From Escherichia phage vB_EcoP_G7C, in sequence record NC_015933.1: DNA of 64,000 nucleotides. The stretch is one strand, 5' to 3'. Position 1 is the stretch's first letter, and every line of letters starts with the position of its first letter. This document shows positions 944 to 38,625 of this stretch, piece by piece. The position numbers and the translations under genes were made by a program. Under the pieces are notes generated by a model. That model ran no database searches, had not been told where the DNA came from, and saw only the letters and a list, made by a program, of their open reading frames with translations.

Positions 944-1996
944 ATGGCGAGCATTGACTCCTTGACTGTATGTAATACACGCCAAGCCCGTAACTTTATT
1001 ATCCGTGCCTTGCAAGCAGGTAACGTACCGTTCCTGACTTCATCACCAGGTATGGGTAAGTCTGCAATTATTCGTTCTATTGCAGAAGAATTTGGTATGA
1101 AGCTGATTGACCATCGTCTGTCTACTTCTGCCCCGGAAGACTTATCTGGTCTACCATTCCGTAATGGTGACCGTGCAGAGTTTATTCCATTTGCTGACTT
1201 ATTCCCTATCGAGGGTGACAAAGTACCGGATGGTTATAATGGCTGGCTCCTGTTCCTTGATGAGTTCAACTCAGCTAAGAAAGAAGTAGTGGCTGCTGCA
1301 TACAAACTAATTCTCGACCGCATGACCGGACAGAAAAAACTTCACCCTAATGTGATGATTATCTGTGCCGGTAACAAAGCTACTGACCGAGCCATAGTTA
1401 ACCCACTGGGTACTGCAATGCAGTCTCGTGTTGTCCACTTCGAAATGGAACTCGACTTCGACATCTTTGTTGAAGACGTAATGATTCCACAAGAATGGGA
1501 TGAGCGTCTGGTTGCATTCTTACATGCTAACCCTGGTTATCTGCATGACTTCGACCCCGCACATAAGAATAAAACATTCTGTTGCCCACGTACCTGGGAC
1601 TTTGTTAACAAAGACCTCAAGAACCGACCAGAAGGTGCTTTGCCTGATGAAGATTCTATCTACTATGCAGGCCACGTTACTGCTGGTAAAGCTACAGAGT
1701 TTGTTCAGTTCACTCAGGTATACAATCGTATGATTACGATTGAGAAGGTAGTAAAAGACCCGTTAGGCTGTGCACTACCGGAAGATAATAACCTGTGTTG
1801 GGCTACTGTTAACCATCTGGCTAACAAAACTACTGAAGATAACTTCGCTGATGTTCTTCAGTACATTGAACGCTTTAAAACGTTCACCCATAAGATTCTG
1901 TACTTCCGTACAGTAGGAAAAGCATTACCAGAAATTCAGGCTACCCCTGAATGGCGTAAGGCTGCTGCCAATATCTCTCGTTACATTCACGGATAA
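944..1996 (+). CDS. AAA+ ATPase, MoxR-like
   Basis: Walker A SSPGMGKS, Walker B LLFLDEFN, sensor-1 ICAGN; AGGAGA RBS 8 nt upstream of ATG. Confidence 0.85.
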   Translation: MASIDSLTVCNTRQARNFIIRALQAGNVPFLTSSPGMGKSAIIRSIAEEFGMKLIDHRLSTSAPEDLSGLPFRNGDRAEFIPFADLFPIEGDKVPDGYNGWLLFLDEFNSAKKEVVAAAYKLILDRMTGQKKLHPNVMIICAGNKATDRAIVNPLGTAMQSRVVHFEMELDFDIFVEDVMIPQEWDERLVAFLHANPGYLHDFDPAHKNKTFCCPRTWDFVNKDLKNRPEGALPDEDSIYYAGHVTAGKATEFVQFTQVYNRMITIEKVVKDPLGCALPEDNNLCWATVNHLANKTTEDNFADVLQYIERFKTFTHKILYFRTVGKALPEIQATPEWRKAAANISRYIHG

Positions 1997-2476: not shown

Positions 2477-3651
2477 TGAATAGTATACCTACGCATACTC
2501 TCACTGATGAACGGTTAATGAGGGAGTACGATAGAATACAAGCGCAGGCATTTCTCGGACGTAGTGCAGCGTTTTTTGGTTCATTGCTGTGTAGTCTTAA
2601 GTTCTCATGGAAACGTGAGGGCTGTCCCACTGCATGTACCGACGGGATAGAACTCCATTTCAACCCAGACTTCTTTATCTGGATGTGTCCTGATGCAAGG
2701 GAAACAGTGCTAATGCACGAACTTTGGCATGTGGCATATCTGCATGGAATCCGTTGTGGAAGCCGTGATCCAGAAGTCTGGAACCAGGCATGTGACCACT
2801 TCATTAACCTTCAGTTAGAGGAAGATGGTTACAAGTTCACTGGTATCGACAAAGGCATTTGCAAAGACCCTCAATATAAAGGATGGGTCGAAGAAGACAT
2901 CTACGATGACCTGATGAAGAACCCTCAGAAAAGGCAGAAGCCGTCGGGGGGAGCTGGAGCAGGTCTTGCTGGCGACATGAAAGCTCCCTCTTCGGGGCAG
3001 TCCCAGGGTGCTGTTGTCAACAACGTAGTACGTGCAATACAAAGCCAGAAGATGGCTGGTGGAACGATGCCCGGTAAAGGTGCTGGTCGTATGGAAGAGG
3101 TTATTACCCAATTCCTTAAACCAGTGGTTCCGTGGCAGGAAGTCCTGATGAACTTCTTTACCGACATTGATGATACGCATTATACGTGGGCCAGACCCAA
3201 CCGTCGTTTCACTGACGTCTATCTACCTTCTCTGGAAGATGATGAAGGACGTTTACGACACTTAGCCTATTTTGAGGATGTATCCGGTTCTATTAGTAGT
3301 GCTGACTCTCTGCGTTTTAACTCAGAGGTTGCCTACGTTAAGAGCCAGTTCAATCCTAAGAAGATGACCCTAATTACCTTCGACGATATTATCCAAGAAG
3401 AAATAGACATCACTGAAGAAGATACTTTTGAAGAGATTAAGATTACTGGACGAGGGGGTACAAACCTTGAACCAGTGCGTGAATGGATTATTAAGAATAA
3501 GCCAACCGCTGCAATCATATTCTCTGATATGTATGTTCGCCCTATGGAAGATTTACCATTTGATATTCCTATCATCTGGTGTGTTCTGAATAATCCTAAT
3601 GCTACCGTACCTTTTGGGGAGGTAGTTCATATCCCTAAAGGAATGAAATAA
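2476..3651 (+). CDS. VWA-domain protein with N-terminal HExxH metallopeptidase-like domain (partner of the MoxR-like ATPase)
   Basis: HELWH zinc-binding-type motif near N-terminus; MIDAS-like DVSGS; start overlaps HNH stop (TAATG). Confidence 0.8.
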   Translation: MNSIPTHTLTDERLMREYDRIQAQAFLGRSAAFFGSLLCSLKFSWKREGCPTACTDGIELHFNPDFFIWMCPDARETVLMHELWHVAYLHGIRCGSRDPEVWNQACDHFINLQLEEDGYKFTGIDKGICKDPQYKGWVEEDIYDDLMKNPQKRQKPSGGAGAGLAGDMKAPSSGQSQGAVVNNVVRAIQSQKMAGGTMPGKGAGRMEEVITQFLKPVVPWQEVLMNFFTDIDDTHYTWARPNRRFTDVYLPSLEDDEGRLRHLAYFEDVSGSISSADSLRFNSEVAYVKSQFNPKKMTLITFDDIIQEEIDITEEDTFEEIKITGRGGTNLEPVREWIIKNKPTAAIIFSDMYVRPMEDLPFDIPIIWCVLNNPNATVPFGEVVHIPKGMK

Positions 3652-24674: not shown

Positions 24675-25172
24675 ATGAGCAAGCCATTAGGATACTGGAA
24701 TAAACCTGCCCATGAACTCGCTGTAGTACATTCTCCCGATGATGCCAATGCAAAGGATGGATACATCAGTATTAAACGTCATGGGGTGAGGGTATTTCTG
24801 CACAACTGGATTTGGGAATACTATAATGGACCAATCCCGGATGGGTATGAAGTTGACCACATCAATGGAATCCCAACTGATTGTCGACTTATTAATATGA
24901 GACTGGTGTCCCATATGATTAACTGTCGCAATCGTCGCAAAAGAATTGACAATACATCCGGCGCTACCGGTGTGTATAGACAATGGAAGAAGACTAATGA
25001 ATATTGGACTGCTGCTTGGAATGACCCGCATACAGGTAAGCTACGAACTAAAAGCTTCAACATTGGTGTTCTTGGGGATAGCGAAGCCAAAGATGCTGCT
25101 ATAGCATACCGGGCTACTATAGAAGCAGACCTGGTAAAGAATCACAACTACACCTTACGCCATGGAAGATAA
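24675..25172 (+). CDS. HNH homing endonuclease with AP2 domain
   Basis: HNH-type VDHINGIPTDCRLINMRLVSHMINCRN; AP2-like GATGVYRQWKKTNEYWTAAWNDPHTGKLRTKSF. Confidence 0.8.
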   Translation: MSKPLGYWNKPAHELAVVHSPDDANAKDGYISIKRHGVRVFLHNWIWEYYNGPIPDGYEVDHINGIPTDCRLINMRLVSHMINCRNRRKRIDNTSGATGVYRQWKKTNEYWTAAWNDPHTGKLRTKSFNIGVLGDSEAKDAAIAYRATIEADLVKNHNYTLRHGR

Positions 25173-25207: not shown

Positions 25208-25378
25208 ATGAACAAATTTACTATTCACTGGCTCAATGGAAAGGTTAGTTCTTTCATGGGTGGAGAACCTGCTGAAGGAAACAAAGCATTCCACATTGAT
25301 TCAGAAGGCTGCAAAATCTTAATACCTTATGCTTGGTATAAAGGTGGTGAAGTTGAAGCATTGAAAAAGAGTAGTTAA
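25208..25378 (+). CDS. Small hypothetical protein (56 aa)
   Basis: ATG with GAGG RBS; below the ORF-track size cut-off. Confidence 0.35.
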   Translation: MNKFTIHWLNGKVSSFMGGEPAEGNKAFHIDSEGCKILIPYAWYKGGEVEALKKSS

Positions 25379-26629
25379 TATCGTGAAGGGTTCTGTTAGA
25401 ATCCTTTGAGATAGGAACTCCTATCATAACCTTTCTTAACTTAATCTTTGCCGTATGGCACTGACGCTAGGGGTGGCCCCCCATCCGTCAGACAGACTAT
25501 TTTAAGAACCGGTTATCTCAGAAAATGTAAAGCAACATTCGGGTTAATCAATGGCCTCTCCTATAGGGGCCATTTCTGAATCTTAGGCTATATCCCAAAG
25601 GTTAGTATCTTTGGGATAAGGCTTCAGATCCCTTATCAAACTAACGCTCATGTTGAGCACAACATTAACCAATAATGTCGGATAGTTCGTTACGCTATTC
25701 ATCCAGCATCGAGTTGTTAGGTCTTACATGCAACATAGGGTAATGGGAGGATTCGTCCCCTCCCTCCTATTATGAACCAATTCGTGAGAACTCTTATCTT
25801 GGCTACCGGGAAAGGAGTGAAAAATGTTCGTAAACTACTCCCCAATTAGGTTCAACTCCTAAGCCAGGGTAAGTGTTCTCACTAATTGGAAAAATTAAGA
25901 CGGGTCTGGTGAAGTAGATGGGGTTCGATTCCCTCCGGTGGAGTAATCCACTAGCGTGCTTGGTGCACGAATAAGACTTAATACTGGTGGTTCGATTCCA
26001 TCCCCCGTTACCCGAAGTCGCCAGGTACTTATGGCAAACGGGTAGTAACGAACTAGTCATTCGTCAAACGCCCACCCAATTATGAGTCAGCAAGAACGCC
26101 TTCACTTAAACTTAAACAAAAAAGCTTAACGCAATAATTATGTAGGGGTATGTAAGGATTGCGAAGAAGGAGCCAGTTAGAGCCTGGCATGGCTCACCTA
26201 TTGCATTACCAAGCCACTAGGCAAGTACTGTTAAGCAGTATACACGTTATGAGCCTCCTGGGGGCTAGTGGAAGTTGCCAACATCAACGAGATGTCCTGT
26301 GTTGTCTCTGAGGCTGCTTGGTAGTGCATTCTAATCAGCAGTAACATAGTCCTGATTGCATAGCACTCTAAAGACAACACTGGTAAGACAGTCCAGTGGC
26401 TGCTAATGTATTGTTATTCCCCTCGACGGGAATTTCGCTAGTGAAGGTAACACTTAAAAATCCAAACCCACGTCTTACTACTATCGGGCTATCAACCCAC
26501 GGTCGCTTAACCCTGTAGTGATAGTAGTTTGACGGCCTGCCTCGTTGACTGCGTTAAAGTCACTAAGTCCCTCGGAGCCGTCACTCTGGGGGACTTTTTT
26601 ATTTGAGAACTACTTATTGGACGATTCAT
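25379..26629 (+). ncRNA. ORF-poor structured RNA island with tRNA-like T-arm motifs; candidate ncRNA or degenerate tRNA cluster
   Basis: No ORF of 60 aa or more on the plus strand; two exact GGTTCGATTCC T-arm 11-mers (25922-25932, 25989-25999) each with a pairing T-stem; several perfect 6-10 bp stem-loops; ends at a terminator. Confidence 0.4.
26567..26600 (+). terminator. Rho-independent terminator closing the RNA island
   Basis: GC-rich stem GTCCC…GGGGAC followed by T6. Confidence 0.55.
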
Positions 26630-26771
26630 ATGATTGACCTAATCTTAACCCCGTATGCCTATGAGGTAACGGATAACCGTGGACGTAAGTCTTTGGTATT
26701 TGCAGGTAGCGTAGCCTATAACAACGCAGTCATGTTTAAATACAAACTTAAACCACTCTATGAGGCTAATA

Positions 26772-26909
26772 ATGGAATTTGATGATTTAGATTTTGAAGC
26801 TATCGAAAGGGCGAACCAGGAGAAACTGGAACAGGCTAATCGTGAAGCTGAAGAGTTAGAAAACGCTAAAGGCAACAACGATTGCACGAGTGGTGGTTGC
26901 ACCATTTAG
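26772..26909 (+). CDS. Small acidic protein (45 aa)
   Basis: ATG with GAGG RBS; overlaps a weaker 50-aa ORF at 26630-26782. Confidence 0.3.
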   Translation: MEFDDLDFEAIERANQEKLEQANREAEELENAKGNNDCTSGGCTI

Positions 26910-26990
26910 CAAACAGGTATATGGTAGTTTTTACCGAAAGGTACTGAACTACCCGACATGTGGTAAGGCTCGAGAAGCCAAAACAAAATA

Positions 26991-27013
26991 AGCCCTCCTA
27001 GTGAGGGCTTTTC
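26991..27013 (+). terminator. Terminator-like hairpin
   Basis: Stem AGCCCTC/GAGGGCT followed by TTTT. Confidence 0.5.
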
Positions 27014-27033
27014 CATATCTGTAGGAAACTATT

Positions 27034-27264
27034 ATGACGCAAGTATCTATTACCTCTGTTGTTCGTGAAGCCATTCTCAACAATACTGTTCGTACATATT
27101 CGTTCGATGAAATCGCAGAGAAGCTAGGAGTAACCCGTTACGTGGCTAAGAAACTCTACTTCACTTTCCTGTGGTTCCCTACGGAAGAAACATTACGGAA
27201 GATTAAAGAAACTGGTAAATTTCCAAGTGAAGGACGCAAGCCTAAAATGTGGAAAACACCCTAG
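27034..27264 (+). CDS. Small HTH DNA-binding protein (76 aa)
   Basis: AGGAAA RBS 7 nt upstream; HTH-like YSFDEIAEKLGVTRYVAKKLY; bracketed by terminators. Confidence 0.5.
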   Translation: MTQVSITSVVREAILNNTVRTYSFDEIAEKLGVTRYVAKKLYFTFLWFPTEETLRKIKETGKFPSEGRKPKMWKTP

Positions 27265-27276
27265 CTTCTAAAAGCA

Positions 27277-27298
27277 AAGCCCCTCTTTTGAGGGGCTT
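27277..27298. terminator. Bidirectional rho-independent terminator between convergent units
   Basis: Perfect 9-bp stem AAGCCCCTC/GAGGGGCTT with TTTT loop, A-run upstream and T-run downstream. Confidence 0.75.
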
Positions 27299-27305
27299 TC
27301 TCATT

Positions 27306-30300
27306 TTAGTTTACTAAGTTCATCCAAGGGTTTAGGTTGTGAGCACGAAGCCCCTGACCAAAGCCCCATGAGTAATCCAGACTACCCTTAGCAGCAATAC
27401 TAAAGATGTTGTCCTGAATAGGTAAGCCAACGTTACCAAACATGGTAGGAGTTGGAGCCAGCATCGCCATTGCTGCATGTACTGGGTTATTGCGAATCAT
27501 GGACACTGCAACCTTAGCTGAACGAATCTTAAAGTTGTAGAACCACATTAAACCAACGCTTTCCATATACCCACGGAAACGGCCCGGCAGACGGTCATAG
27601 TTAATGAACTCTTCGGTTACACGTCCCAGTGCTTCTTCACGAGTCTTACCTTTACGCTGGGTCAATTCATCATAGATGATTGCTTTAGCGATAAAGTCAG
27701 AGTACTCAACCGTCTTCTGGATACCCTGGAACAGAGCAGTATCCTTAGTGATAAGTGCATAACGACCAGCAGCACGTACAGACTTAGGTAACTTATCCGC
27801 CAGCTTTTCCATGTATTCGTGAAGTTTACCTTCAGTAATCAGGATGTCATCACGACCAATACCAGCATCTGCAATTGAAGAGAACTCACCAGCTTCTATC
27901 AGAGGCCAGATACTCATACGCTTATGGCTATCAGTAATGGACTGAATCTCAGCCTTAAGTTTACGAATCTGGTTCGGGTTAGTAGCTGCACGTAATTCTG
28001 CTTCTGCATCTACCTGACGTAAACGAGATTTAAGGTATTGGTTAATCTCAGCAGTCTTCCGTGGAATGCTCTTAGCAATGTTCTTAACCGGTACACCACG
28101 AGCAACCATCTGGTAAAGGTTAGCCAAAAAGTTAACAACAGGTACGACTACTGACTTAACTACAATCAGAGTCTTAGCATCTTTAACTAAATTTTGAACC
28201 AGGTTCTCACCACCCATTAAGTACTTATAGGCACGGTTACCGGCTAAACCCAGAATAGCTTTTTTAAAAGTATTAAGCGTTTCCGGGGACCAACGAGAAT
28301 TACCAGACCAAGCATCACCAATCGAAGCTGCACGATAGCCAAGTGCATCATTCAGCATGTCACGACGTACCCACAGTTCACCCTCACCAAACAGTTTTTC
28401 TGCTTTCCGTCGAGTTTCACTGTTCATCAGCTTAAGAGCATCAGCAGTTACTGGGTCCAGTTTAGAACCAAAAAGGTTCACGTACTGGGACTTATTAGCA
28501 GCAGACATCTTAATGTCTTCCTTGTACATGCTATACAGGTTCTCAATCAGCATATCATTGAAACGCTGAGCCTTAGCTTCTTCCACCTGACGTCCACGCC
28601 ATACACCAATTGCACGGGCAAGATGATTTTCACCTTCAATATGCTTCAGCATATTAGGGTTAATTGATTGCTCATAAGCAACCACATCACCTTTAGCATT
28701 ATATACAGGCAGCAGTGGTTCATTACCACGTTCACCACGAGCTAGTGCTTTAGCGATACGGTCTACAGAAGGCTTGTCAGTAATACGACCAGCTACCATG
28801 GAACCCATAGTAAAGCCTGTACCGAGGTCTACACCACCAGCAGTATTACGAACGTTCTGTAGAATACCTTGTGAGAACGGAGCCTGTGCCTGTACTGGGG
28901 CAAAGTAGTAGCTACGTGCCAGACCTCGGTTAGCAGAGCTACCTTGATAAGTACCCAGACGAACATAGGACTTCTCTATCAAATCACCAAACTCGCTATC
29001 TTCAGCAACAACCAGACTAACACCCTGTTTAGTCTCACTAGGGATATACCCTTTGTACTGGTTCAGGGTTGCACGCATATCAGACTTGGCTTTAGCCATT
29101 TCATCTTTACGCTGCCCAACCAGGTAAGAAGTAGCAAAGTCCATTCCCTCAACTTCTGTCTGAGCCAGTGAAGATAACATCTCACGGTCGGACTTGTTCA
29201 TTGCTTCCAGTGCATACAGGGTAATAAGTTTATCCAGTTGAGCTACATCTACAATAGAACGAGTAGTCTTACGTTCACCCAGCATACGAGAGATTGCAGT
29301 AGCATTACGCAGCAAGTTTTTACCGACTGTGCCATTAATCATGTACTGAGCCAGTTGCTTAGATTTACGGTTAATCAGAGGCCAGTTACGACCAGCTTGT
29401 TTCTGCAAATCTGCTTCCAGCTTATTCACTTCACGGTCAACAATCTTCTGGTCTGAAAGCAGGTCACGAATTTCAGCCAGAGACATGGTGTCACGCAGGA
29501 CAGCTAAGTCAGTTTTACCCATACCAGTGTACATTGCTTTCCACTCATCCTTAGTCAGCTTACGGCTGAACTTAGATGCGATAGTGGTAGGCAGGTGTTC
29601 ACGGAACTGCTGACGGTCAGCCTGCACCTGTGCACGGACTGCTTTAATCAAATCGTATACAGAAGCATTGCTCTTAGTACGACCGGTTAAATCATTAACC
29701 AGGTCATGGAAAGGTTGCCATACTTTACCCTGGTTCATTGCAACCATAACGCCTTCAGCTACGTTTGCACCATTCTTCTCTGTAGCAATAGCAGCCATTA
29801 GTTGTGCAGCATGAGCAGCACCTTTGACCAATGGGTTCTTGGTATTAGCTGCAACTTCACGAGCACTTTCTAAAACACGAGTAGACAGTACATCAATAGA
29901 GTCCACCAAATACTGGTTAGCACGGTCAATAGCATTACCACTAGGAGTAGCAACGGAATCATAGAATGACTGTGCATTTAGGCTAGTCTGCATGATTGTT
30001 TGAGCCAGTGCATCCATACCTTCCTGTACGTTGGTAGCTTTGGTATCACCTGCTACACGAGCATTCAGACTAGCCATTGCAGCAGTACCAATGTTAGTCA
30101 GCATTGCATCAACGGTATTCCCAGATTTCTTATCTGCTTTCATAACAGGAATGTTAGCCAGTACGTTACGTACCTCTTCACTTACCATTGCCAGACCAAC
30201 AAAGGTAGGCAGTATTGAAGAACGACCCTGTGCATCAAACTCAATATTGTTAGCACCCATGATGGTATCGAACTTCTGCTGTGCATAGTAACGGTCAGCA

Positions 30301-33300
30301 GGGTTAGTACTATCTGGGTCAGTCATGAATGATTCAACAGTCAGGTTCTTAGTAACGTGTGCATAGTATTCCTGTGCACGAGAAAGAGCAGCCGGACTAA
30401 TAGCAGCTTCAGTAGCGAGTGCAGCAACAATGTTAGTAAAGAGACGCTGCTCCTGCATATTCATAGTGAAGCCATGAGCCTGAACATCACGGGTTACTTT
30501 AGTTGCGTGCTTTTTCGCATCAGAGAACTTACCTTCACGGATTACTTGCTGTACTGGTTCTGAACCAATGTAGTTAGTAATCAGCTTATCAAATGTCTGT
30601 CCTAACTCTTCCAGACGGGTATTGTCACCATATGCTTTGTTATGGAACAAAGTAGTATCTTTGGCTACAGCAGCAGTAGGAGCCTGCCCACGCATAACAA
30701 CTGAAGAGTTAAACAGTAAGCCAGAGAACATATCATCAGCATTAGCAGGTGCTTCTTCACGACCAAATACCAGTCGCTTGATTGCTTCATATACAGACTG
30801 AATCATAACTTTCAGTGCTGTGGTCTTCTTCTGCTTACTAATTAGCTCCTGGTTAGTTAAACCCCATGCCATGTACTCATTTAATGCAGCAGCTTTAGCT
30901 ATTGCTGGTTCAATATAGCCATTAGACAAGTAGCCGTTAATGGTATAGAGGGCATCGGCATATGCTTCACGTACTTCCGGAGATTCATCCTTAACATCCA
31001 GAGCAAGGAACTGGTTCATCAGGTCTTCGATATTCTGGACTGCTTCGTTAGGAGTACCCTCATAGTGAGCCAGTACAGATTCAAAAGTAGAAGCATGTAC
31101 CAATTCATGAACCAGAGTCTCTAAGGAAGGGGTGACTAAGTAGATGGTCTTATCATCAAAGTTAGTCCAGCCGTATGTATTACCTGCTTCGGCAGCTTCA
31201 ATATCTTCTGGTGCTGGACGGGTAATGTTCTTCTCAATAGCGTAAGCATCCAATTGAGCAGGAGTACCGTAAACAACCTTGTAGTCTTTAGCAGCAAGGG
31301 ATTTCTGTACTTCTTTCAATACTGCTTGCTGTTCAGGAGACATTTCTTTAGCCAGCTTAGTGATAGCAGTATTAGACAACAGACGTACACCAGACTTAAG
31401 TACACGACCAACTTGTTCCATTGCTGGCACTTCTTTAACAGGTGCTTCTTTCACTGGTTCTGCTTTAGCAGCACGTACTGCATCACGACGCTTGTTTAAT
31501 TCAGCATCGAACAGTTCGTTCAGCTTAGCTACTTGCTGGTCTACAGTCAGACCTTCCAGAGAAATTTTACCGTTGTTCACATATGGAGCACCTACAGCAG
31601 CCATCTGGTCAACAGTAGTCTGTACTTGGTTCATTACTTTGTGGCGAATATCTACACCCAGAGCAATGTTTCGCAAGTTACGCTCAATGAGGTTAACACC
31701 GGAATTCTTAATCATATCAATCTTATACTGCCTGTCCCCTTCAACACGACTGATATGAGAAAGCTGTTCAAAATCTAAAGCGGAACGGGCAATGTCATCA
31801 ATTGTCTTATCCGACAACTTATCAAAGTCTACGTTCTTCATGAACTTAGAGAAGGAGTCATACACGTTCTTAATAGGGTTGCCCTGCCAAGAAGTATATA
31901 CAGCCTCGTTAGCTTTACGACTTGCATCAGTGATGTCACTGATACCAATGTTCATACCATCAAAGATTTTCAGGGTATTCTTAGGAGCACCTTTCATAGT
32001 AGAAAGGGTCTGCATCATCATGCCATCACCAGTACCAATGGTCATAAACGGAATACCTGCAACACCTGCTTGTGAAGGAGCATAGATGCTCATTGGCACA
32101 CGCATACGGTCATCTAAGTTGGTAGCCAGTACTTGGTTAGCAACGTCAGTACTCTCACTGCCAGCAAGGTAGAAAGTCTGTGAGCCAGTCTCAATCATTG
32201 GGGCCAGTGGAGATAATGATTCCTGGATTTCATTCAGTTCTTTCTGTGTTAAGAAATCACCCTTCTTCCAGGTTGGGTCTTTTTCTTTTTCTGCTAGCTT
32301 AGTCTGTACTGCTTGTTGGAACATATCCTGCAATACCAGAGACTGAATCTGAGTAGCCTTCTGCAAGTTCTCAGTAGAGTACATCAGACCTTCACCAACA
32401 GTATTACGGATACCGGTACGCATTGGTTCAACGAACAAATGGAGCATGTTCTCTTGTAAGTTCTTCAGAGCATTACCGGATACGGTAAATTTCTGAGGGT
32501 TTAACTTACCAGTCAGAGCACCATCTACTTCCTTAATAAATAACTTACCTTTGCGCTTAGCTGGAATTTTACCAGTCAGTGCTTCCATAGAAGTAAGGAA
32601 AGTATCCAGCATAGCCTGAGCATCAGCCTCAGACGCAGCCTCCTTACCAAACATTGCCATAGCCGGGGAAATGCTAGGGTCAGCAGCACGTGCTTGCAGA
32701 ACGTCGCTGAAGCGTTCGTAGATGGTGTCAGTAATTGCACCGACTATATTACCAGCAATACCACGTGCACCAGCACCATAGATGGTAATGGTAAGCGGGT
32801 TTTTAGCGATACCACGTTTCAGGTCCAGAGTACCATCTTCATTCAGGTTAAAGTCTTTAATGAACAGGTCCATTAACTTCTGGAGATGATTTATCTGGTT
32901 TATAACTGGAACGTTGTTACGGTAAGTAGTACGTAACGCATTCAGTGCTTGTTGCAGACCATTGGTAGATGCTTCATACAAGTCAACATTATCGTCGATA
33001 GAACAATGTTCGTTCATCGTTTTACCAGCACGACCGAAGAACAAACCACCTTTGGCAGTATTCTTAATCCAGTCTGGGGTGAACTTACCACCAGTCATTA
33101 ATACCATTGCGTTGATTGGGCCGTTGGTTACACCATCAGCTTCAACGTACAGAGGGGTAGTAAAATTAGCACGGTCATCACTGTTCAGGTAACGGGCATA
33201 TTCCATCAGGGCCATGAGAGCTACGAAGGATTTGTTATCACCCAGAGAGGTTTTCAGAATATCTACTGCATCAGTAGGTAAATAACCAGACTTATCAAAC

Positions 33301-36300
33301 TCAACCATCATATCAACAGCAGGTTTCAAATTACCTTCCAGAGCTTTGGTCAGATTTTCAGACATAGCTTCACGGGACATTTTATGTACCTTGATGCCCA
33401 ATGCCTGAGCCAGACCTAACTGGAAGTCAGAGAATGCTTGGCTGTTTTCATTACTCAAGTCGATAGTGGAGAAGGTTGGCAGAATTGCTTCACGAACCAG
33501 TTTACTGGATTGTGGGTTATTCTTACCAAGCATCTGCATACGACCTACACGGGTCATGTTGTAACCGTAGTGAATGGGGGTATCCAAACCATTCTCTTGT
33601 TCTTTTAGCTGATTAATTAAACCGAACAAAGAATCATATGCCATAGATACCGATAAGTTCTTACCTTCCAGAGATTTGGCAGTGTTTTCATTCAGCAAAT
33701 CAGGATTAAGAGAACCAGCACCCATCAGTTCCAGAATGCCGTCTCGGCCTAATGCTTCATAGAAGTTAACCATCGGCATGTGTACACGGAACTCCGTAGC
33801 CTGTTCAGCTTTCAAAGCAGCTTTCTGTTCCGGGGTATTCCTAACAGCAGGGTTACGTAACTGAGTTTGAGCCACGGAAGGAATGTCATCACCGAAGTAC
33901 GTTTTCTCTTCCGGATTTACCAGCACAGCTTCCTCAATTGCTGTAGGGAAATTATTAATAGGGTCTTTATCTGCCAACTTATTAATAGTGTACAGACCAA
34001 TAGTCTTATTAGAGTCCGGGTCAATCTCAGACACATCCAGCATAGTCTCAGTAACTGCACCCATCTCGATGAGGGAAGACAGAATCTCTGTAGCCATTGC
34101 CGCTGGAATACCCTTGGTATAACCCAGTGGTGCATTAGGGTTACGGTTTAAACCCCAGTAGGATTCAATCTTTTGAGCCAGTGAGTTAGTAGCCTCAACC
34201 AGAGTCTGGGCATTCTCAAACTCAGTCAGAATACTTTCTGGTAACAGAGATGCATCTACACCAGTAATAGCAGCCACGTCTTTCATGTCTTTAATGGCAG
34301 CATTCTGTGTAGCAGTCAGTCGCCATTGCAGACCGGCAAGTACAGCAGTCTCTAACAACTGATCATTGAACTTAAAGGTATCTCCATCTTTCTCTACGAT
34401 GTTAAGTAACTTACCACTTACCCAACGGTTAGCTTCAGTACCTTCTGCAAAACGTTTACCAACGTTCTTATTAGCAAGGAACTTAGCCAGTCGTTTAGAC
34501 AGAGTAGCCTTCAGAGTTTCCCCAAAGTCCATCAAGTCTTGATAGCGTTCTAACACATCACCTGCGAGAACGTTATTTTCTTTTTGAGTGAATGCTTCAA
34601 AGCGAGCAGCAGAAGACAGTGCTTTCTTGATATCAGCCAAAGGAGATTCAGAACCAATGGTACGGGACTTAGGTTCTTCCGGTAGGGTAAATGCCTTCAG
34701 GAACTGGTTCGGTGTCTTCTCATTGTTATAGACAGGGAACACTGCTTCCATTCCAGAAAGAGGTTTGCCACCCACTGTATAGTCTGCTTTCAGCTGAGCC
34801 AGTGATACCTCATCTTCCTCCACGTTGTTAGTGTTAAGACCAGAGGTATCTACACCAACCAGAATATGTGCATTATTGGCTTCAACGAAAGATTGAACAG
34901 TATTGAATTGTTCAGCAGTCAGTTTCTGATCATCGAACAGCTGTAAGGACACAAACGGTTGTTCGCTGCCTTTATAGAACATAGAGCGAATAGCACCTGT
35001 ATCCAGAGACATATCACGATAACCATCATGACCAAATACATCGGACAGGCTGATATGGTCGCCATTAGAGCCAACCACAGTACCATCAGCAAACAGCCAT
35101 GGACTCTCTCTACGATCACCATACTTATTAAGAGTTTCCTGTGAAATAGTATTTTCTTTCACATAAGCATCTCTTTCAGATTCGGTAGGTTGCTCGATGG
35201 TATCCTCATTAGTAAGGGTAGCATCATCTACAACCGGGCTAGCCTTTTCAGACTTAGGTACTTTCTCTTCCTGTACAGGTGTAACTTCTGGCTGGGAGAA
35301 TGTATTACGTACATAGTTCATAAAATCATTACGTGCTTGGGAAGGGGAAGACCATACTTCCCGTGTGCTACGTAAACTAAAGATTCGACCTTCAGGAGTC
35401 ATTACGTAAGGTACATTTGTTTTACCGTACTTAAATGAAGTGAGTACATCTGACTTACCAGTAACAGTGCTTTCCCCTGGAATGACAATAGTCTTACCAC
35501 CAGTAGAAGGAACAGCACGAACACCCTCAATATCCTTACCAAGAGAAATATACTCTTTACCGTTGTAATCAAAGTACTGACCTATCTGCATATAGGTAGC
35601 TTGTTGCTTACCAGTAAACTCAGCAGTTTTCATCTCCGGGCCGTTAGGTACAGACGTACTTTCAGACTTAGGCTTAGATACTTTCTCTGGTTCTGACTTA
35701 GACTCTACAGTGTTAGGGGCAGTCTCTTTTGCTTCGACTGGTGCAGTTTTTGACTGTACAGTAATGGCTGGTTCCTGTGTTTTTACAGGTGTTTCATCAA
35801 CCTGATTCACTGGTTCATTAGTCTGTTGGGACTGAGTGGCATTAAGACCACCTTGACGGAACTCTTTAACTACCTGGGCAGCTGGCTTGTTCAGACGTGA
35901 ATCCAACGAGGTAACTTTCACATGAGAAACATTAAGCTCCGGGTAAGCCGTAGCAAGTGCATTAGCAATATCAGCTACGGTTTTGGCCTCCAGTGCTACT
36001 TGCTGGGCAAACTTAACAGACTTGGTATCATAAGGATTAACACCGAGGCCAGTACGACTACGTACCCATTCACGGGTAGGCGTGAGAGCCTGATAATGAA
36101 CAGACTTATTCTTATCCGCATTCCCCGAAATCAGATGCTCATTCAACGCTCCGACCTTATTCTGCATGTGCTGGGCGAACTTCATAAAATCGCTCAGATA
36201 AGCGGAAGCCAAATCGAAGTTACCAGAGTTATACGCAGAACGAATGCGTTTCGCATGTTGCAACGCAGAGTACTGTCCTTCATTAGAACGAGACTCGTCG

Positions 36301-38552
36301 GTTTTAATCTGTTTACTAACAATGTCTTGAGGACGTAAGCCCAGTTCTTCTGCTTTAGCATCATACTCACGTGCACCCTGTAACAGAGCAGCAGCTGATT
36401 GCAGGGCAGCACGTTGACGATTATTCAGTGTAATCTTACCTTCACTTGCGTGCTTCAGAACCATGTTCACTGAATCTGCATCCAGTACTTCTGGAGACAC
36501 ATCAGCAGCCATAGCAATGTTGTTTGCTTGGGCTTGATTAGCTTCTTCAGTAGCTTTCAGTTTACCTGCTTCAGCTTGTTCCTGAATCATGGAATGGATG
36601 GCACGGAATGCACGAAGTACTTTAGGGGTATTCTGTATGTTAGCCATCAGGCCGGAGAACTGGTCTACGATTGCAGCAGCAGGAGAACCTTGTTCCAGAT
36701 TAGCCAGAGCACCTGGGTCACGGTTAATGAAGCTATCCATAGACATGATGTTGTCATACATCTGGATTGCAGCTTCCATTTGAACGTCAGGGTCTTCAGC
36801 AGTATTAACCAAGTCAGCCATCTTCTGAATAGCTTCCACACGGTTAGTGGAACCAGAAACAGCTTCACGGATTACTGGGTTGGCTTGTTCCAATTCTACT
36901 GGGTCAAACTTCATTGCCTGAGTCAAGTCAGCAGCATACTGGGTAGCAGCAGCTTTCTCTTCTGGAGTGATATCCATTGCATCTACTGCTTCCTGTACGG
37001 TTGCCTGTGCTTGTTCTGCCTGAGCAACAGCTTCCTGTGCAGCAGCATTAACCGTAGCATCGGCTACAGGGGATGCTTGTTCATTACGCTTAGCAACTTC
37101 TTCCCCACGTTGAACCAGGATGTTAGTAAGAGGAGATGCAGCTTTTGCTAATGTTTTACCAACCAGAGAAGCACCAGCCAGAGTGGTACGAAGAGCAGGT
37201 CCAGCAGCAGCACCGGCAGCTTTAACAGTTGCACCAGGAGCCTGAGCAACACCAGCACTACCGAAGCCATAGAGTGCACCAAGACCCGCTTGCTCACCGA
37301 CACCTTTGAGGGTATCTCGGGATGCATCAACATTTTCCTTGATTGCACGGTTCTGTGCGAACTGACCAAAGCCTGATTGAGTACCCTCTTCAAAAGTCTG
37401 AGCACCAAGGTTAGTAAGAGCTGCCCCAGCAGAACCAACCCTCATGGGGTTAAGTTCAAACTTAGATACTAACGGACCCATAGCAGCAGCAACTGGGGCA
37501 GTTAAGGCAGCAGCAATGATACCCGTTTCAGATGCAGTCTGACGACGTGCTTCATCAGGAGATAAACCATCAGCAATATGTTGTTGGTAAACAGGAGACT
37601 TACTTGCCAGTTCTGGATGGGACATCTTCATGATTTCAGAAGCAGTCTGTTGGTATGCACCCCCGGCTTCCATGCCACCGATTGCAATAGCAGGTGCAGC
37701 AACACGACCAGTAGACAATGCAACCTGTGCAGGACGTGAACCCAACCCAGCAGCTAAGGTAATACCCTTAACAGCTTTATCACCACCTACCATTACTTTA
37801 CCGAGTGCAGATACACCACGAATAAGTGGACCACCAGTAAAGAGGGAACCGACACCCTCACTCAGTCCATCTGAGGCAGCCATACCATTATCAAGTGTGT
37901 TAGCAACAGAGTCGAAAGCATCACGACCAATACGAGACAGGGAGGCAACCAAATCACTCTCCCCGTTTTTGATGTCCTGTTCATAGAGTTTCTGGTTCTT
38001 TTGAGCAGAAATCTGGTTCTGATTCTGAACAACTTTACGGGTAGCATTCAGTGCATCAGACTGTAGATTGTGTACGCCTTCATTCAGCCAATCCATCCCG
38101 GAAGCAATGGTTGCCCCGGCATTATCATTGACCAGACCTGCGCCAAGAGCAGCAATGCCCCCAAGGGTATTAGCAACACCAAGACCAACACCAGAAAGAG
38201 TATCGCCAAATGCTTCTGCGTTAGTACGCTGTTTAGATAAGTCCTGACGTACAGCATCCGCAGCATTAGCTCGGCTATTAAGAATCTGTAAACCTTGCTC
38301 ATTACCGTACTTATTAATGATTTCTAATGGGGAGGCTTGAGTGAAGTCTGCCTGAAGTGAACCTGGTTCGAATGCACCGATTCCAAGATTACCTACTCGT
38401 CCAGTCTGGAGAGTGTAAGCATTCTCTGGGGTTAATTGGAAAGGGCTTTGCCCTTGTGCAGCTTGCTTCTGAGAGGTTGCAGTAGAGACATCGACTTGCT
38501 TAGCATTAGTGATGCTGTCTGCGAAACCTGCCAGACGGTCAAATGTTGACAT
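27306..38552 (-). CDS. Virion-encapsidated RNA polymerase (N4 vRNAP-like giant protein, about 3748 aa)
   Basis: Single 11.2-kb ORF; T7-like RNAP motifs in the central region: motif A YVEADGVTNGP, motif B KRGIAKNPLTITIYGAG, motif C KIFDGMNIG; ATG at 38552 has AGGAAA RBS (ORF-track TTG at 38570). Confidence 0.9.
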   Translation of the reverse strand: MSTFDRLAGFADSITNAKQVDVSTATSQKQAAQGQSPFQLTPENAYTLQTGRVGNLGIGAFEPGSLQADFTQASPLEIINKYGNEQGLQILNSRANAADAVRQDLSKQRTNAEAFGDTLSGVGLGVANTLGGIAALGAGLVNDNAGATIASGMDWLNEGVHNLQSDALNATRKVVQNQNQISAQKNQKLYEQDIKNGESDLVASLSRIGRDAFDSVANTLDNGMAASDGLSEGVGSLFTGGPLIRGVSALGKVMVGGDKAVKGITLAAGLGSRPAQVALSTGRVAAPAIAIGGMEAGGAYQQTASEIMKMSHPELASKSPVYQQHIADGLSPDEARRQTASETGIIAAALTAPVAAAMGPLVSKFELNPMRVGSAGAALTNLGAQTFEEGTQSGFGQFAQNRAIKENVDASRDTLKGVGEQAGLGALYGFGSAGVAQAPGATVKAAGAAAGPALRTTLAGASLVGKTLAKAASPLTNILVQRGEEVAKRNEQASPVADATVNAAAQEAVAQAEQAQATVQEAVDAMDITPEEKAAATQYAADLTQAMKFDPVELEQANPVIREAVSGSTNRVEAIQKMADLVNTAEDPDVQMEAAIQMYDNIMSMDSFINRDPGALANLEQGSPAAAIVDQFSGLMANIQNTPKVLRAFRAIHSMIQEQAEAGKLKATEEANQAQANNIAMAADVSPEVLDADSVNMVLKHASEGKITLNNRQRAALQSAAALLQGAREYDAKAEELGLRPQDIVSKQIKTDESRSNEGQYSALQHAKRIRSAYNSGNFDLASAYLSDFMKFAQHMQNKVGALNEHLISGNADKNKSVHYQALTPTREWVRSRTGLGVNPYDTKSVKFAQQVALEAKTVADIANALATAYPELNVSHVKVTSLDSRLNKPAAQVVKEFRQGGLNATQSQQTNEPVNQVDETPVKTQEPAITVQSKTAPVEAKETAPNTVESKSEPEKVSKPKSESTSVPNGPEMKTAEFTGKQQATYMQIGQYFDYNGKEYISLGKDIEGVRAVPSTGGKTIVIPGESTVTGKSDVLTSFKYGKTNVPYVMTPEGRIFSLRSTREVWSSPSQARNDFMNYVRNTFSQPEVTPVQEEKVPKSEKASPVVDDATLTNEDTIEQPTESERDAYVKENTISQETLNKYGDRRESPWLFADGTVVGSNGDHISLSDVFGHDGYRDMSLDTGAIRSMFYKGSEQPFVSLQLFDDQKLTAEQFNTVQSFVEANNAHILVGVDTSGLNTNNVEEDEVSLAQLKADYTVGGKPLSGMEAVFPVYNNEKTPNQFLKAFTLPEEPKSRTIGSESPLADIKKALSSAARFEAFTQKENNVLAGDVLERYQDLMDFGETLKATLSKRLAKFLANKNVGKRFAEGTEANRWVSGKLLNIVEKDGDTFKFNDQLLETAVLAGLQWRLTATQNAAIKDMKDVAAITGVDASLLPESILTEFENAQTLVEATNSLAQKIESYWGLNRNPNAPLGYTKGIPAAMATEILSSLIEMGAVTETMLDVSEIDPDSNKTIGLYTINKLADKDPINNFPTAIEEAVLVNPEEKTYFGDDIPSVAQTQLRNPAVRNTPEQKAALKAEQATEFRVHMPMVNFYEALGRDGILELMGAGSLNPDLLNENTAKSLEGKNLSVSMAYDSLFGLINQLKEQENGLDTPIHYGYNMTRVGRMQMLGKNNPQSSKLVREAILPTFSTIDLSNENSQAFSDFQLGLAQALGIKVHKMSREAMSENLTKALEGNLKPAVDMMVEFDKSGYLPTDAVDILKTSLGDNKSFVALMALMEYARYLNSDDRANFTTPLYVEADGVTNGPINAMVLMTGGKFTPDWIKNTAKGGLFFGRAGKTMNEHCSIDDNVDLYEASTNGLQQALNALRTTYRNNVPVINQINHLQKLMDLFIKDFNLNEDGTLDLKRGIAKNPLTITIYGAGARGIAGNIVGAITDTIYERFSDVLQARAADPSISPAMAMFGKEAASEADAQAMLDTFLTSMEALTGKIPAKRKGKLFIKEVDGALTGKLNPQKFTVSGNALKNLQENMLHLFVEPMRTGIRNTVGEGLMYSTENLQKATQIQSLVLQDMFQQAVQTKLAEKEKDPTWKKGDFLTQKELNEIQESLSPLAPMIETGSQTFYLAGSESTDVANQVLATNLDDRMRVPMSIYAPSQAGVAGIPFMTIGTGDGMMMQTLSTMKGAPKNTLKIFDGMNIGISDITDASRKANEAVYTSWQGNPIKNVYDSFSKFMKNVDFDKLSDKTIDDIARSALDFEQLSHISRVEGDRQYKIDMIKNSGVNLIERNLRNIALGVDIRHKVMNQVQTTVDQMAAVGAPYVNNGKISLEGLTVDQQVAKLNELFDAELNKRRDAVRAAKAEPVKEAPVKEVPAMEQVGRVLKSGVRLLSNTAITKLAKEMSPEQQAVLKEVQKSLAAKDYKVVYGTPAQLDAYAIEKNITRPAPEDIEAAEAGNTYGWTNFDDKTIYLVTPSLETLVHELVHASTFESVLAHYEGTPNEAVQNIEDLMNQFLALDVKDESPEVREAYADALYTINGYLSNGYIEPAIAKAAALNEYMAWGLTNQELISKQKKTTALKVMIQSVYEAIKRLVFGREEAPANADDMFSGLLFNSSVVMRGQAPTAAVAKDTTLFHNKAYGDNTRLEELGQTFDKLITNYIGSEPVQQVIREGKFSDAKKHATKVTRDVQAHGFTMNMQEQRLFTNIVAALATEAAISPAALSRAQEYYAHVTKNLTVESFMTDPDSTNPADRYYAQQKFDTIMGANNIEFDAQGRSSILPTFVGLAMVSEEVRNVLANIPVMKADKKSGNTVDAMLTNIGTAAMASLNARVAGDTKATNVQEGMDALAQTIMQTSLNAQSFYDSVATPSGNAIDRANQYLVDSIDVLSTRVLESAREVAANTKNPLVKGAAHAAQLMAAIATEKNGANVAEGVMVAMNQGKVWQPFHDLVNDLTGRTKSNASVYDLIKAVRAQVQADRQQFREHLPTTIASKFSRKLTKDEWKAMYTGMGKTDLAVLRDTMSLAEIRDLLSDQKIVDREVNKLEADLQKQAGRNWPLINRKSKQLAQYMINGTVGKNLLRNATAISRMLGERKTTRSIVDVAQLDKLITLYALEAMNKSDREMLSSLAQTEVEGMDFATSYLVGQRKDEMAKAKSDMRATLNQYKGYIPSETKQGVSLVVAEDSEFGDLIEKSYVRLGTYQGSSANRGLARSYYFAPVQAQAPFSQGILQNVRNTAGGVDLGTGFTMGSMVAGRITDKPSVDRIAKALARGERGNEPLLPVYNAKGDVVAYEQSINPNMLKHIEGENHLARAIGVWRGRQVEEAKAQRFNDMLIENLYSMYKEDIKMSAANKSQYVNLFGSKLDPVTADALKLMNSETRRKAEKLFGEGELWVRRDMLNDALGYRAASIGDAWSGNSRWSPETLNTFKKAILGLAGNRAYKYLMGGENLVQNLVKDAKTLIVVKSVVVPVVNFLANLYQMVARGVPVKNIAKSIPRKTAEINQYLKSRLRQVDAEAELRAATNPNQIRKLKAEIQSITDSHKRMSIWPLIEAGEFSSIADAGIGRDDILITEGKLHEYMEKLADKLPKSVRAAGRYALITKDTALFQGIQKTVEYSDFIAKAIIYDELTQRKGKTREEALGRVTEEFINYDRLPGRFRGYMESVGLMWFYNFKIRSAKVAVSMIRNNPVHAAMAMLAPTPTMFGNVGLPIQDNIFSIAAKGSLDYSWGFGQGLRAHNLNPWMNLVN

Positions 38553-38625
38553 AGCATGTTTCCTGTTCAAACTTATATCGTATATAGGTAACTTACTCTA
38601 CAGTAAGCCAGTTAAAGAAAAAAGC

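Follow-up and report, generated by a model that had tools for sequence, protein, structure and literature searches.

The window analysed here, a 64,000-nt stretch of Escherichia phage vB_EcoP_G7C (NC_015933.1), derives from an N4-like phage of the genus Gamaleyavirus: positions 25300-27400 match Escherichia and Shigella phages of the genus at 84-95% identity, and a minus-strand ORF at 27306-38570 (3754 aa) encodes the virion RNA polymerase. Between the rightward genes and this convergent polymerase gene lies an ORF-poor region of about 1.9 kb (roughly 25400-27300), which in relatives holds tRNA genes (tRNA-Ile in Gamaleyaviruses; Asn, Ser, Thr and Pro in N4). The element described below sits in this region, that is, within the tRNA region of N4-like phages, on the plus strand, which is also the strand of the flanking genes. 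It is overlapped by a minus-strand ORF of 85 aa (25803-26060), for which we reject a coding role because in most homologues the reading frame is disrupted. Just upstream of the RNA region, a plus-strand ORF of 165 aa (24675-25172) carries HNH_3 endonuclease and AP2 domains. At its other end, a bidirectional terminator-like hairpin (AAAGCCCCTC TTTT GAGGGGCTTT, 27276-27299, both strands) stands between the rightward genes and the end of the polymerase gene and accounts for weak Rfam matches to sRNAs and leaders at that position. Note that the deposited annotation of phage Mimir124 (L002, 900-2310) packs the entire RNA region with short ORFs of hypothetical status, in either direction, including one across the element; such calls are probably spurious, the underlying genes being structured RNAs.

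The 11-mer GGTTCGATTCC occurs exactly twice in the 64 kb, at 25922-25932 and 25989-25999, both times on the plus strand. Given that dinucleotide shuffles lead us to expect 0.01 matches and that none of 100 shuffles yielded two, these T-arm motifs are real rather than chance occurrences. Each copy falls within a T-arm-like hairpin with the loop TTCGATT, in line with the tandem T-arm motifs reported by a first-pass annotation of this DNA, and both loops conform to the TTCRANY consensus. The strings said to follow the two T-arms, CGGTGGA-G and CCCCGTT-A, can likewise be read directly from the sequence. The same annotation held that the matching acceptor strands were absent, and it is true that neither T-arm has a complementary strand about 70 nt upstream; however, partners do exist elsewhere, in a nested arrangement. 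The one pairing it had considered available, GATGGGG (25917-25923) with CCCCGTT (26003-26009), has to give way to these other, conserved partners. Across 15 homologues, it leaves 81% of cells paired, a value reached by 29 of 500 shuffles, and it shows one compensatory pair along with one position that is unpaired in 9 of the 15 sequences. We consequently rejected the 94-nt fold built on it as not conserved and no better than shuffles on those homologues. Since CCCGTT and GGTGGA each have a conserved partner, the unit measures 112 nt instead. A third T-arm, at 25847-25861, belongs to a separate element upstream.

RNAalifold, run on a MAFFT alignment of the 15 homologues (A2) without structural input from us, recovers five helices, namely an outer acceptor-like stem (P1), a first T-arm, a closed hairpin, a D-like hairpin and a second T-arm, with compensatory changes in 14 of 26 pairs. 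Counting pairs on A2 for these five helices plus a candidate 3-bp helix (29 pairs altogether), we find 99.1% of cells paired, compared to 39-59% in controls where partners were slid by 1-3 columns. In this count, fourteen pairs have changed on both sides. None of 500 shuffles attains the observed value on four of five measures, while 28 of 500 attain the observed count of further pair types. An extended alignment (A5) brings the total to 20 sequences, drawn from coliphages and Klebsiella phages of the N4-like group, from T4-like phages, from three phages of Streptomyces and from a single metagenomic virus. Here pairing holds in 98.3% of cells, with compensatory changes at 18 of 26 pairs; since A5 was fitted to the covariance model, its counts lean towards the structure. 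The folding energy of the element as a single sequence is unexceptional (z-scores of -1.9 and -1.1). When scored with model R1, members reach 107-128 bits and distant members 35-49 bits, with tRNAs and T4 rnaC at 25 bits or below. The element is a structured, conserved and covarying RNA that constitutes a discrete family, its structure being shown by comparative analysis.

Table 1. Parts of the nested tRNA-like RNA in the G7C window (positions of the 64,000-nt stretch).
Feature	Position	Strand	Remarks
Whole nested double tRNA-like RNA, 112 nt	25899-26010	+	Up to discriminator-like A26010; model match of this exact span, 127.8 bits, E 1e-37
P1 5' strand GACGGG, outer acceptor-like stem	25899-25904	+	Pairs with CCCGTT 26004-26009
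GG, 2 nt after P1	25908-25909	+	Invariant in the 15-sequence alignment A2
Single-stranded GTAGAT	25914-25919	+	Invariant in A2; nearly invariant in the enterobacterial clade
T-arm 1: stem 25920-25923/25931-25934, loop TTCGATT 25924-25930	25920-25934	+	RNAalifold; T25919 x C25935 unpaired
Closed acceptor-like hairpin: GGTGGA 25937-25942/TCCACT 25947-25952, loop GTAA 25943-25946	25937-25952	+	Covariation
D-like hairpin: CGTGC/GCACG, loop TTGGT 25960-25964	25955-25969	+	Loop GG invariant in A2
Linker where an anticodon arm would be	25970-25985	+	No conserved helix predicted (RNAalifold)
T-arm 2: stem GGTGG 25986-25990/CCATC 25998-26002, loop TTCGATT 25991-25997	25986-26002	+	Covariation
P1 3' strand CCCGTT (26004-26009) and discriminator-like A26010	26004-26010	+	CCC next, not CCA

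Read from 5' to 3', the element consists of an acceptor 5' strand, a GG, a T-arm, an acceptor 3' strand, a short loop, a further acceptor 5' strand, a D-arm, a linker, a second T-arm and a final acceptor 3' strand (Table 1). The six pairs of P1, which appear in single-sequence folds as well, have 99% of cells paired and show compensatory changes in five cases out of six. Beside them, T25905 stands opposite C26003 as a conserved mismatch of the 7:66 type. P1, taken as 6 bp plus this mismatch, adjoins T-arm 2 directly, as an acceptor stem adjoins its 5-bp T-stem, and both covary; T-arm 2 itself is paired in 100% of cells and has two pairs with compensatory changes. In T-arm 1 the second pair changes from G-C to C-G or U-A among homologues. 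The closed acceptor-like hairpin is compensatory at all six pairs in A5, with a stem of 5-7 bp and a loop of 3-8 nt. Here C25936 faces A25953 without pairing, so that GGTGGA is simply CGGTGGA minus its unpaired first C. The stem of the D-like hairpin (25955-25959 with 25965-25969) has compensatory changes in three of its five pairs, and the TAGC that precedes it resembles tRNA positions 8-11 as judged by eye. No anticodon arm (5-bp stem, 7-nt loop) separates D-arm and T-arm in the consensus structure; the 16-nt linker found there varies in length by 2 nt and includes a CTTA (25977-25980) that is invariant in the enterobacterial clade.

Besides the helices, several single-stranded positions are invariant in the 15 sequences of A2: the GG after P1, GTAGAT, TAG, the GG of the TTGGT loop, and CTTA. 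PhAPEC5 (L031), which was added in A5, has ATAGAT in place of GTAGAT. The GG after P1, which in the Streptomyces and L128 members lies 2-4 nt from that stem, is a candidate partner of a T-loop. The first three nucleotides of GTAGAT, GTA at 25914-25916, may pair with TAC at 25982-25984, a candidate 3-bp helix that is 100% paired in A2 with changes on one side only. The 3' flank was read in 12 members and additionally in L021, L028-L030, L128 and YDN12; in none of these is a CCA encoded after the discriminator-like base. Within the window, CCCGTT has a possible alternative partner in an AACGGG some 30 nt further downstream, which is missing from other clades.

Does this RNA belong to a class that is already catalogued? 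A standard cloverleaf, which according to the first-pass annotation would have told against its reading, is not detected by dedicated software: ARAGORN calls no tRNA or tmRNA gene in the whole 64-kb window, nor a tmRNA tag reading frame. The Rfam tRNA model has no match on a 271-nt stretch even at E-values up to 10, and a search of Rfam 15 at the same threshold gives no family match beyond a 13-nt T-loop aligned to tmRNA at 7-11 bits (gathering score 47). Nor does any Rfam hit reach its gathering threshold. With both ARAGORN and Rfam negative, we reject a standard or unusual tRNA, a tmRNA and any Rfam family. Two independent tRNA genes fare no better. GACGGGT and CGGTGGA are not complementary, and neither are TCCACTA and CCCCGTT; covariation instead backs the crosswise pairing, and because the acceptor strands pair outer with outer and inner with inner, two separate tRNAs cannot form. 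Among the three options put forward earlier, a composite tRNA-like structure or mimicry, as opposed to standard tRNA genes, is supported by these results, but tRNA fragments are not, since compensatory changes preserve each of the five helices in phage families that are unrelated to one another.

By blastn, the segment 25884-26020 is conserved at 90-98% in most Gamaleyaviruses and at about 73% in one Klebsiella N4-like phage, and a core at 25914-26004 is about 80% identical in T4-like phages of three genera (VR5/VR25, PEi20/26, CkP1, KLB31). The element lies between tRNA-Met and tRNA-Arg in VR5, starts 3 nt past the CCA of tRNA-Met in PEi20, and is found between two protein genes in both CkP1 and the Streptomyces phage YDN12. 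Family-specific motif scans of IMG/VR recovered enterobacterial phages only, adding two more Klebsiella-phage-like variants. A generic scan of IMG/VR and metagenomes, in which two T-loops were required to lie 51-69 nt apart before the covariance model was applied, yielded two or three further clades among the matches listed: YDN12 (42 bits), viral contig L128 (49 bits) and possibly L244 (44 bits). In YDN12 and two relatives the element occupies an intergenic position, and the surrounding 7 kb or so contain no tRNA genes. Most matches of the generic scan that score 30-38 bits are indistinguishable from dimeric tRNAs, given that model R2 assigns about 32 bits to L051, a true tandem tRNA dimer, and they were not counted. 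A long GC-rich hairpin abuts the 5' end of the YDN12 copy (L178, 4863-4919); it has a weak Rfam match to 'F6 sRNA' (37 bits, below the gathering score) and may be a terminator or a processing stem.

In bacteria, blastn returned no match in 5,426 complete E. coli genomes (E 1e-3), so that there is no host tRNA being mimicked, and no member was present in 26 bacterial genome loci sampled by the family motif; a host origin was rejected on both counts. Distribution among phages is patchy. SP5M, a close relative, and most YDN12-like phages are without the element, and two isolates have lesions in T-arm 1 (a stem mismatch in Mimir124, a 1-nt deletion in U1G). Given these lesions and the absence from close relatives, the element is either dispensable or useful under certain conditions. 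As to neighbours, the L128 copy stands next to an HNH-like gene, being flanked by an ORF similar to annotated HNH endonucleases, and a Pfam comparison across loci found nothing shared among neighbouring proteins apart from HNH endonucleases, present near two loci; these might be connected with the mobility of RNA cassettes. Horizontal transfer of the element as a cassette is suggested by three observations together: N4-like and T4-like copies are about 80% identical, the distribution is patchy, and HNH genes lie nearby.

A search of the literature on the element itself, on the T4 species 1 and 2 RNAs and on tRNA-like RNAs of N4-like phages yielded no account of this RNA. In design, however, the element has relatives. 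Its inner module presents a T stem-loop, an acceptor-like stem-loop and a D stem-loop in the order of the tRNA-like domain of the bacterial Y RNA YrlA, with covarying helices at 25920-25934, 25937-25952 and 25955-25969 as well as the T-loop and the D-loop GG. In YrlA, the acceptor-like stem-loop of this domain is closed by a loop of variable length, and the T-loop can serve as docking site for the D-loop GG. TruB and DusA modify YrlA, and the M. smegmatis RNA is cleaved by RNase P and gains CCA (Chen et al. 2014, PMC4201824). An origin of YrlA from dimeric tRNA transcripts has been proposed (bioRxiv 10.1101/312249), and this model fits the element closely. Both RNAs are without a decoding anticodon. 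They differ in that the element has no long Ro60-binding stem, its ends forming a tRNA-type acceptor stem beside the second T-arm. The Ro60 (Rsr) motif GNCGAA(N)G is absent from P1 and its 5' flank by direct reading, none of the four neighbouring ORFs contains a TROVE/Ro60 domain, and no Ro60/TROVE annotation occurs in the stretches of relatives that we covered (about 3-5 kb for N4-like and T4-like phages, 10 kb for YDN12).

T4 species 1 (rnaC) and species 2 (rnaD), which are annotated only as small stable RNAs, are also non-tRNA RNAs in the T-even tRNA cluster, and it is the tRNA cluster that the element occupies in the T4-like phages VR5, PEi20 and CkP1. By eye, rnaC shares with it a terminal T-arm with acceptor-like pairing before and after, but has one T-arm and long unrelated internal hairpins. 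Homology between the two, suspected from a common 'ACTTAATA + T-arm' string, was rejected: rnaC scores 15.3 bits with the covariance model, which is tRNA noise (T4 tRNA-Thr scores 19.7), and blastn finds no T4 match. With regard to dimeric tRNA precursors and permuted tRNA genes, the segment order of the element is that of two adjacent tRNAs; the difference lies in its acceptor strands, which pair crosswise, and in the missing parts (both anticodon arms and the first D-arm). The tRNA-like domain of tmRNA, mascRNA, the vtRNAs of MHV68 and the 3' tRNA-like structures of plant viruses are all non-decoding acceptor/T-arm mimics and substrates of tRNA processing. To our knowledge, none of them contains two nested T-arms. 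The kind of molecule, a tRNA mimic, is already known, whereas the RNA family is new, and is related in design to YrlA.

What might such a molecule be for? We think it fairly likely that the locus is a gene for a small, stable, non-decoding tRNA mimic, which would have arisen from a tRNA dimer, mature in the manner of a tRNA and serve as a decoy or adaptor. The 6-bp outer stem and T-arm 2 stand together as they do in the acceptor/T-arm half of a tRNA, and a second, circularly permuted tRNA-like domain is nested inside. Imagine a dimeric tRNA transcript as the ancestor: T-arm 1 and the acceptor 3' strand that follows it would come from the first tRNA, and the 5' acceptor strand, the D-arm and T-arm 2 from the second. 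The element would presumably be transcribed together with the phage tRNA cluster and be freed by RNase P at the 5' end of P1, as a tRNA is; its 3' end would then be trimmed, and a host enzyme may add CCA. To a factor that recognises tRNAs, the mature RNA might present an acceptor end together with one tRNA 'elbow' or two, each a T-loop with a GG cap. It could then be a decoy or an adaptor, directed for example at a host defence that targets tRNAs or at an enzyme that processes or modifies tRNA.

There are a number of other scenarios that might explain the same structure. One is that the fold acts in cis as a kind of punctuation, recruiting RNase P and 3' enzymes to cut a polycistronic transcript at the junctions of adjacent tRNAs or mRNAs, with the excised RNA having no function of its own. 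The placement of the element is compatible with this, between tRNAs in VR5 and PEi20 and between protein genes in YDN12 and CkP1, and so is the make-up of the N4-like region around it, where modules flanked by stems follow one another. However, a single acceptor/T-arm minihelix would suffice for RNase P, yet T-arm 1 and both inner hairpins, closed and D-like, are conserved, as are the single-stranded GG, GTAGAT and CTTA. Because conservation extends to the inner domain and to these motifs, we argue that the folded product is under selection and regard mere punctuation as unlikely. Alternatively, RNase P might also cut in the loop of the closed hairpin, so that two paired pieces, each with CCA on its 3' end, would make up a two-ended and possibly chargeable complex, open to aminoacylation or to modification at the CCA. 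A cut in that loop has been reported for YrlA of M. smegmatis, and the inner hairpin, if its C x A position is included, spans seven positions beside the T-arm, after which G25943 follows as a 'discriminator'. Against this, the inner hairpin ranges from 5 to 7 bp with loops unconstrained at 3-8 nt, and no identity element for aminoacylation is conserved, G3:U70 being present only in some T4-like members; we consider such a complex quite improbable.

Of similarly low, if not slightly lower, probability is the notion that the element has no function at all, either as the decaying relic of two adjacent tRNA genes or as a chance composite left by recombination in a tRNA hot spot. The region is indeed a mosaic in which relatives swap tRNA-like cassettes, T-arm 1 is damaged in some isolates, and close relatives differ in whether they carry the element. 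If decay were under way, though, we would not expect compensatory changes to keep five helices across N4-like, T4-like and Streptomyces phages, and the strands that two separate tRNAs would need (5' strand with GGTGGA, TCCACT with CCCGTT) are not complementary. Least credible of all, and in our view highly improbable, are explanations that do not invoke RNA: an 85-aa protein, an integrase attachment site with a tRNA 3' end, or the target of a homing endonuclease. Although an ORF does overlap the element, Mimir124 has a hypothetical protein annotated there, and an HNH gene lies upstream, the frame is interrupted in most homologues and substitutions compensate one another within helices; moreover, blastn finds no match in the 5,426 complete E. 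coli genomes, and the annotations of the stretches covered in relatives list no integrase.

Returning to the stable tRNA mimic as our preferred reading, one may speculate further that the element is the first representative of a phage RNA family that is undescribed and moves horizontally; its members would be nested double tRNA mimics and living intermediates between dimeric tRNAs and Y RNAs. With two elbows and one or two acceptor ends, they might serve as decoys or adaptors that neutralise a host factor reading the shape of tRNA rather than its anticodon, for instance a nuclease involved in defence or a toxin modifying the CCA end. We put this forward tentatively, as a possibility that we consider rather less likely than not. 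Phage tRNA clusters are increasingly regarded as counter-defence loci, with the amplification of tRNA-Tyr against Septu as an example (PMC13096335). The element adds an RNA family, backed by covariation, to phage groups that are well studied (coliphages of the N4-like and T4-like types, Streptomyces phages); annotation pipelines overlook it or overlay it with small ORFs that are spurious. In architecture it corresponds to the intermediate that the 'dimeric tRNA to Y RNA' model would predict, a model which therefore becomes testable, and it offers a defined 112-nt substrate with which to ask what host or phage proteins read tRNA shape during infection.

The element is not the only structured RNA in its region. 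Directly upstream, a second conserved RNA (25778-25888, plus strand) is closed by a stem of about 25 bp (25778-25804/25862-25888) and encloses an internal hairpin (25814-25819/25836-25841) as well as the third T-arm, whose stem is formed by 25847-25850 and 25858-25861 around the loop TTCAACT. It has ten compensatory pairs and is kept in N4-like phages of the N4 type and of Salmonella (SP-076, SP-058) and Klebsiella (KpCHEMY26). In some records it adjoins and, by 5 nt, overlaps a 'tRNA-Undet' call; in outline it is Y-RNA-like, and it is possibly a substrate of RNase III. Further upstream, a plus-strand hairpin conserved in SP5M (GGGAGG-ATTCGTC-CCCTCCC, 25745-25764) has a 7-nt loop like that of a T-arm, albeit of atypical sequence. 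Downstream, a segment of about 125 nt on the plus strand (26202-26327) has a closing stem of 13 bp, in which GCATTACCAAGCC pairs with GGCTGCTTGGTAGTGC at the 3' end, and a fold z-score of only -1.9; this segment stands where relatives such as SP5M carry two tRNA-type genes (tRNA-??? and tRNA-Ile). In SP5M (L001, 1212-1283 and 1287-1409), as in VLCpiP4a and PhAPEC7, that slot holds other non-canonical tRNA-like cassettes. Each combines an acceptor stem of 7 bp with a T-arm, encodes A-CCA with the junction string AATT after it, and lacks both a normal D-arm and a normal anticodon arm; ARAGORN calls none of them. The recurrence of CCAATT/AATTGG at module boundaries suggests that cassettes are shuffled.

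More widely, the generic scans turned up at least 120 loci each with T-loops 51-69 nt apart, closer than two tRNAs allow. At many of these, among the matches listed (L032-L263), a normal tRNA is followed by a tRNA-like element of about 60 nt, often with CAGCAA, so non-canonical tRNA-like RNAs appear to be common in phage tRNA clusters. Three metagenomic contigs with tRNA clusters (L240, about 1150-1330, minus strand; L244, about 980-1165, minus strand; L250, about 2535-2720, plus strand) display a chain of modules made up of a T-arm, a closed acceptor-like hairpin, a canonical D-arm, a short linker, a T-arm, a closed hairpin, a D-arm and an anticodon arm, the loop of the latter being CTGTCAC in two of the three. 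These chains look like tandem permuted tRNA-like units and are arranged differently from the element, since the strand after their second T-arm pairs downstream.
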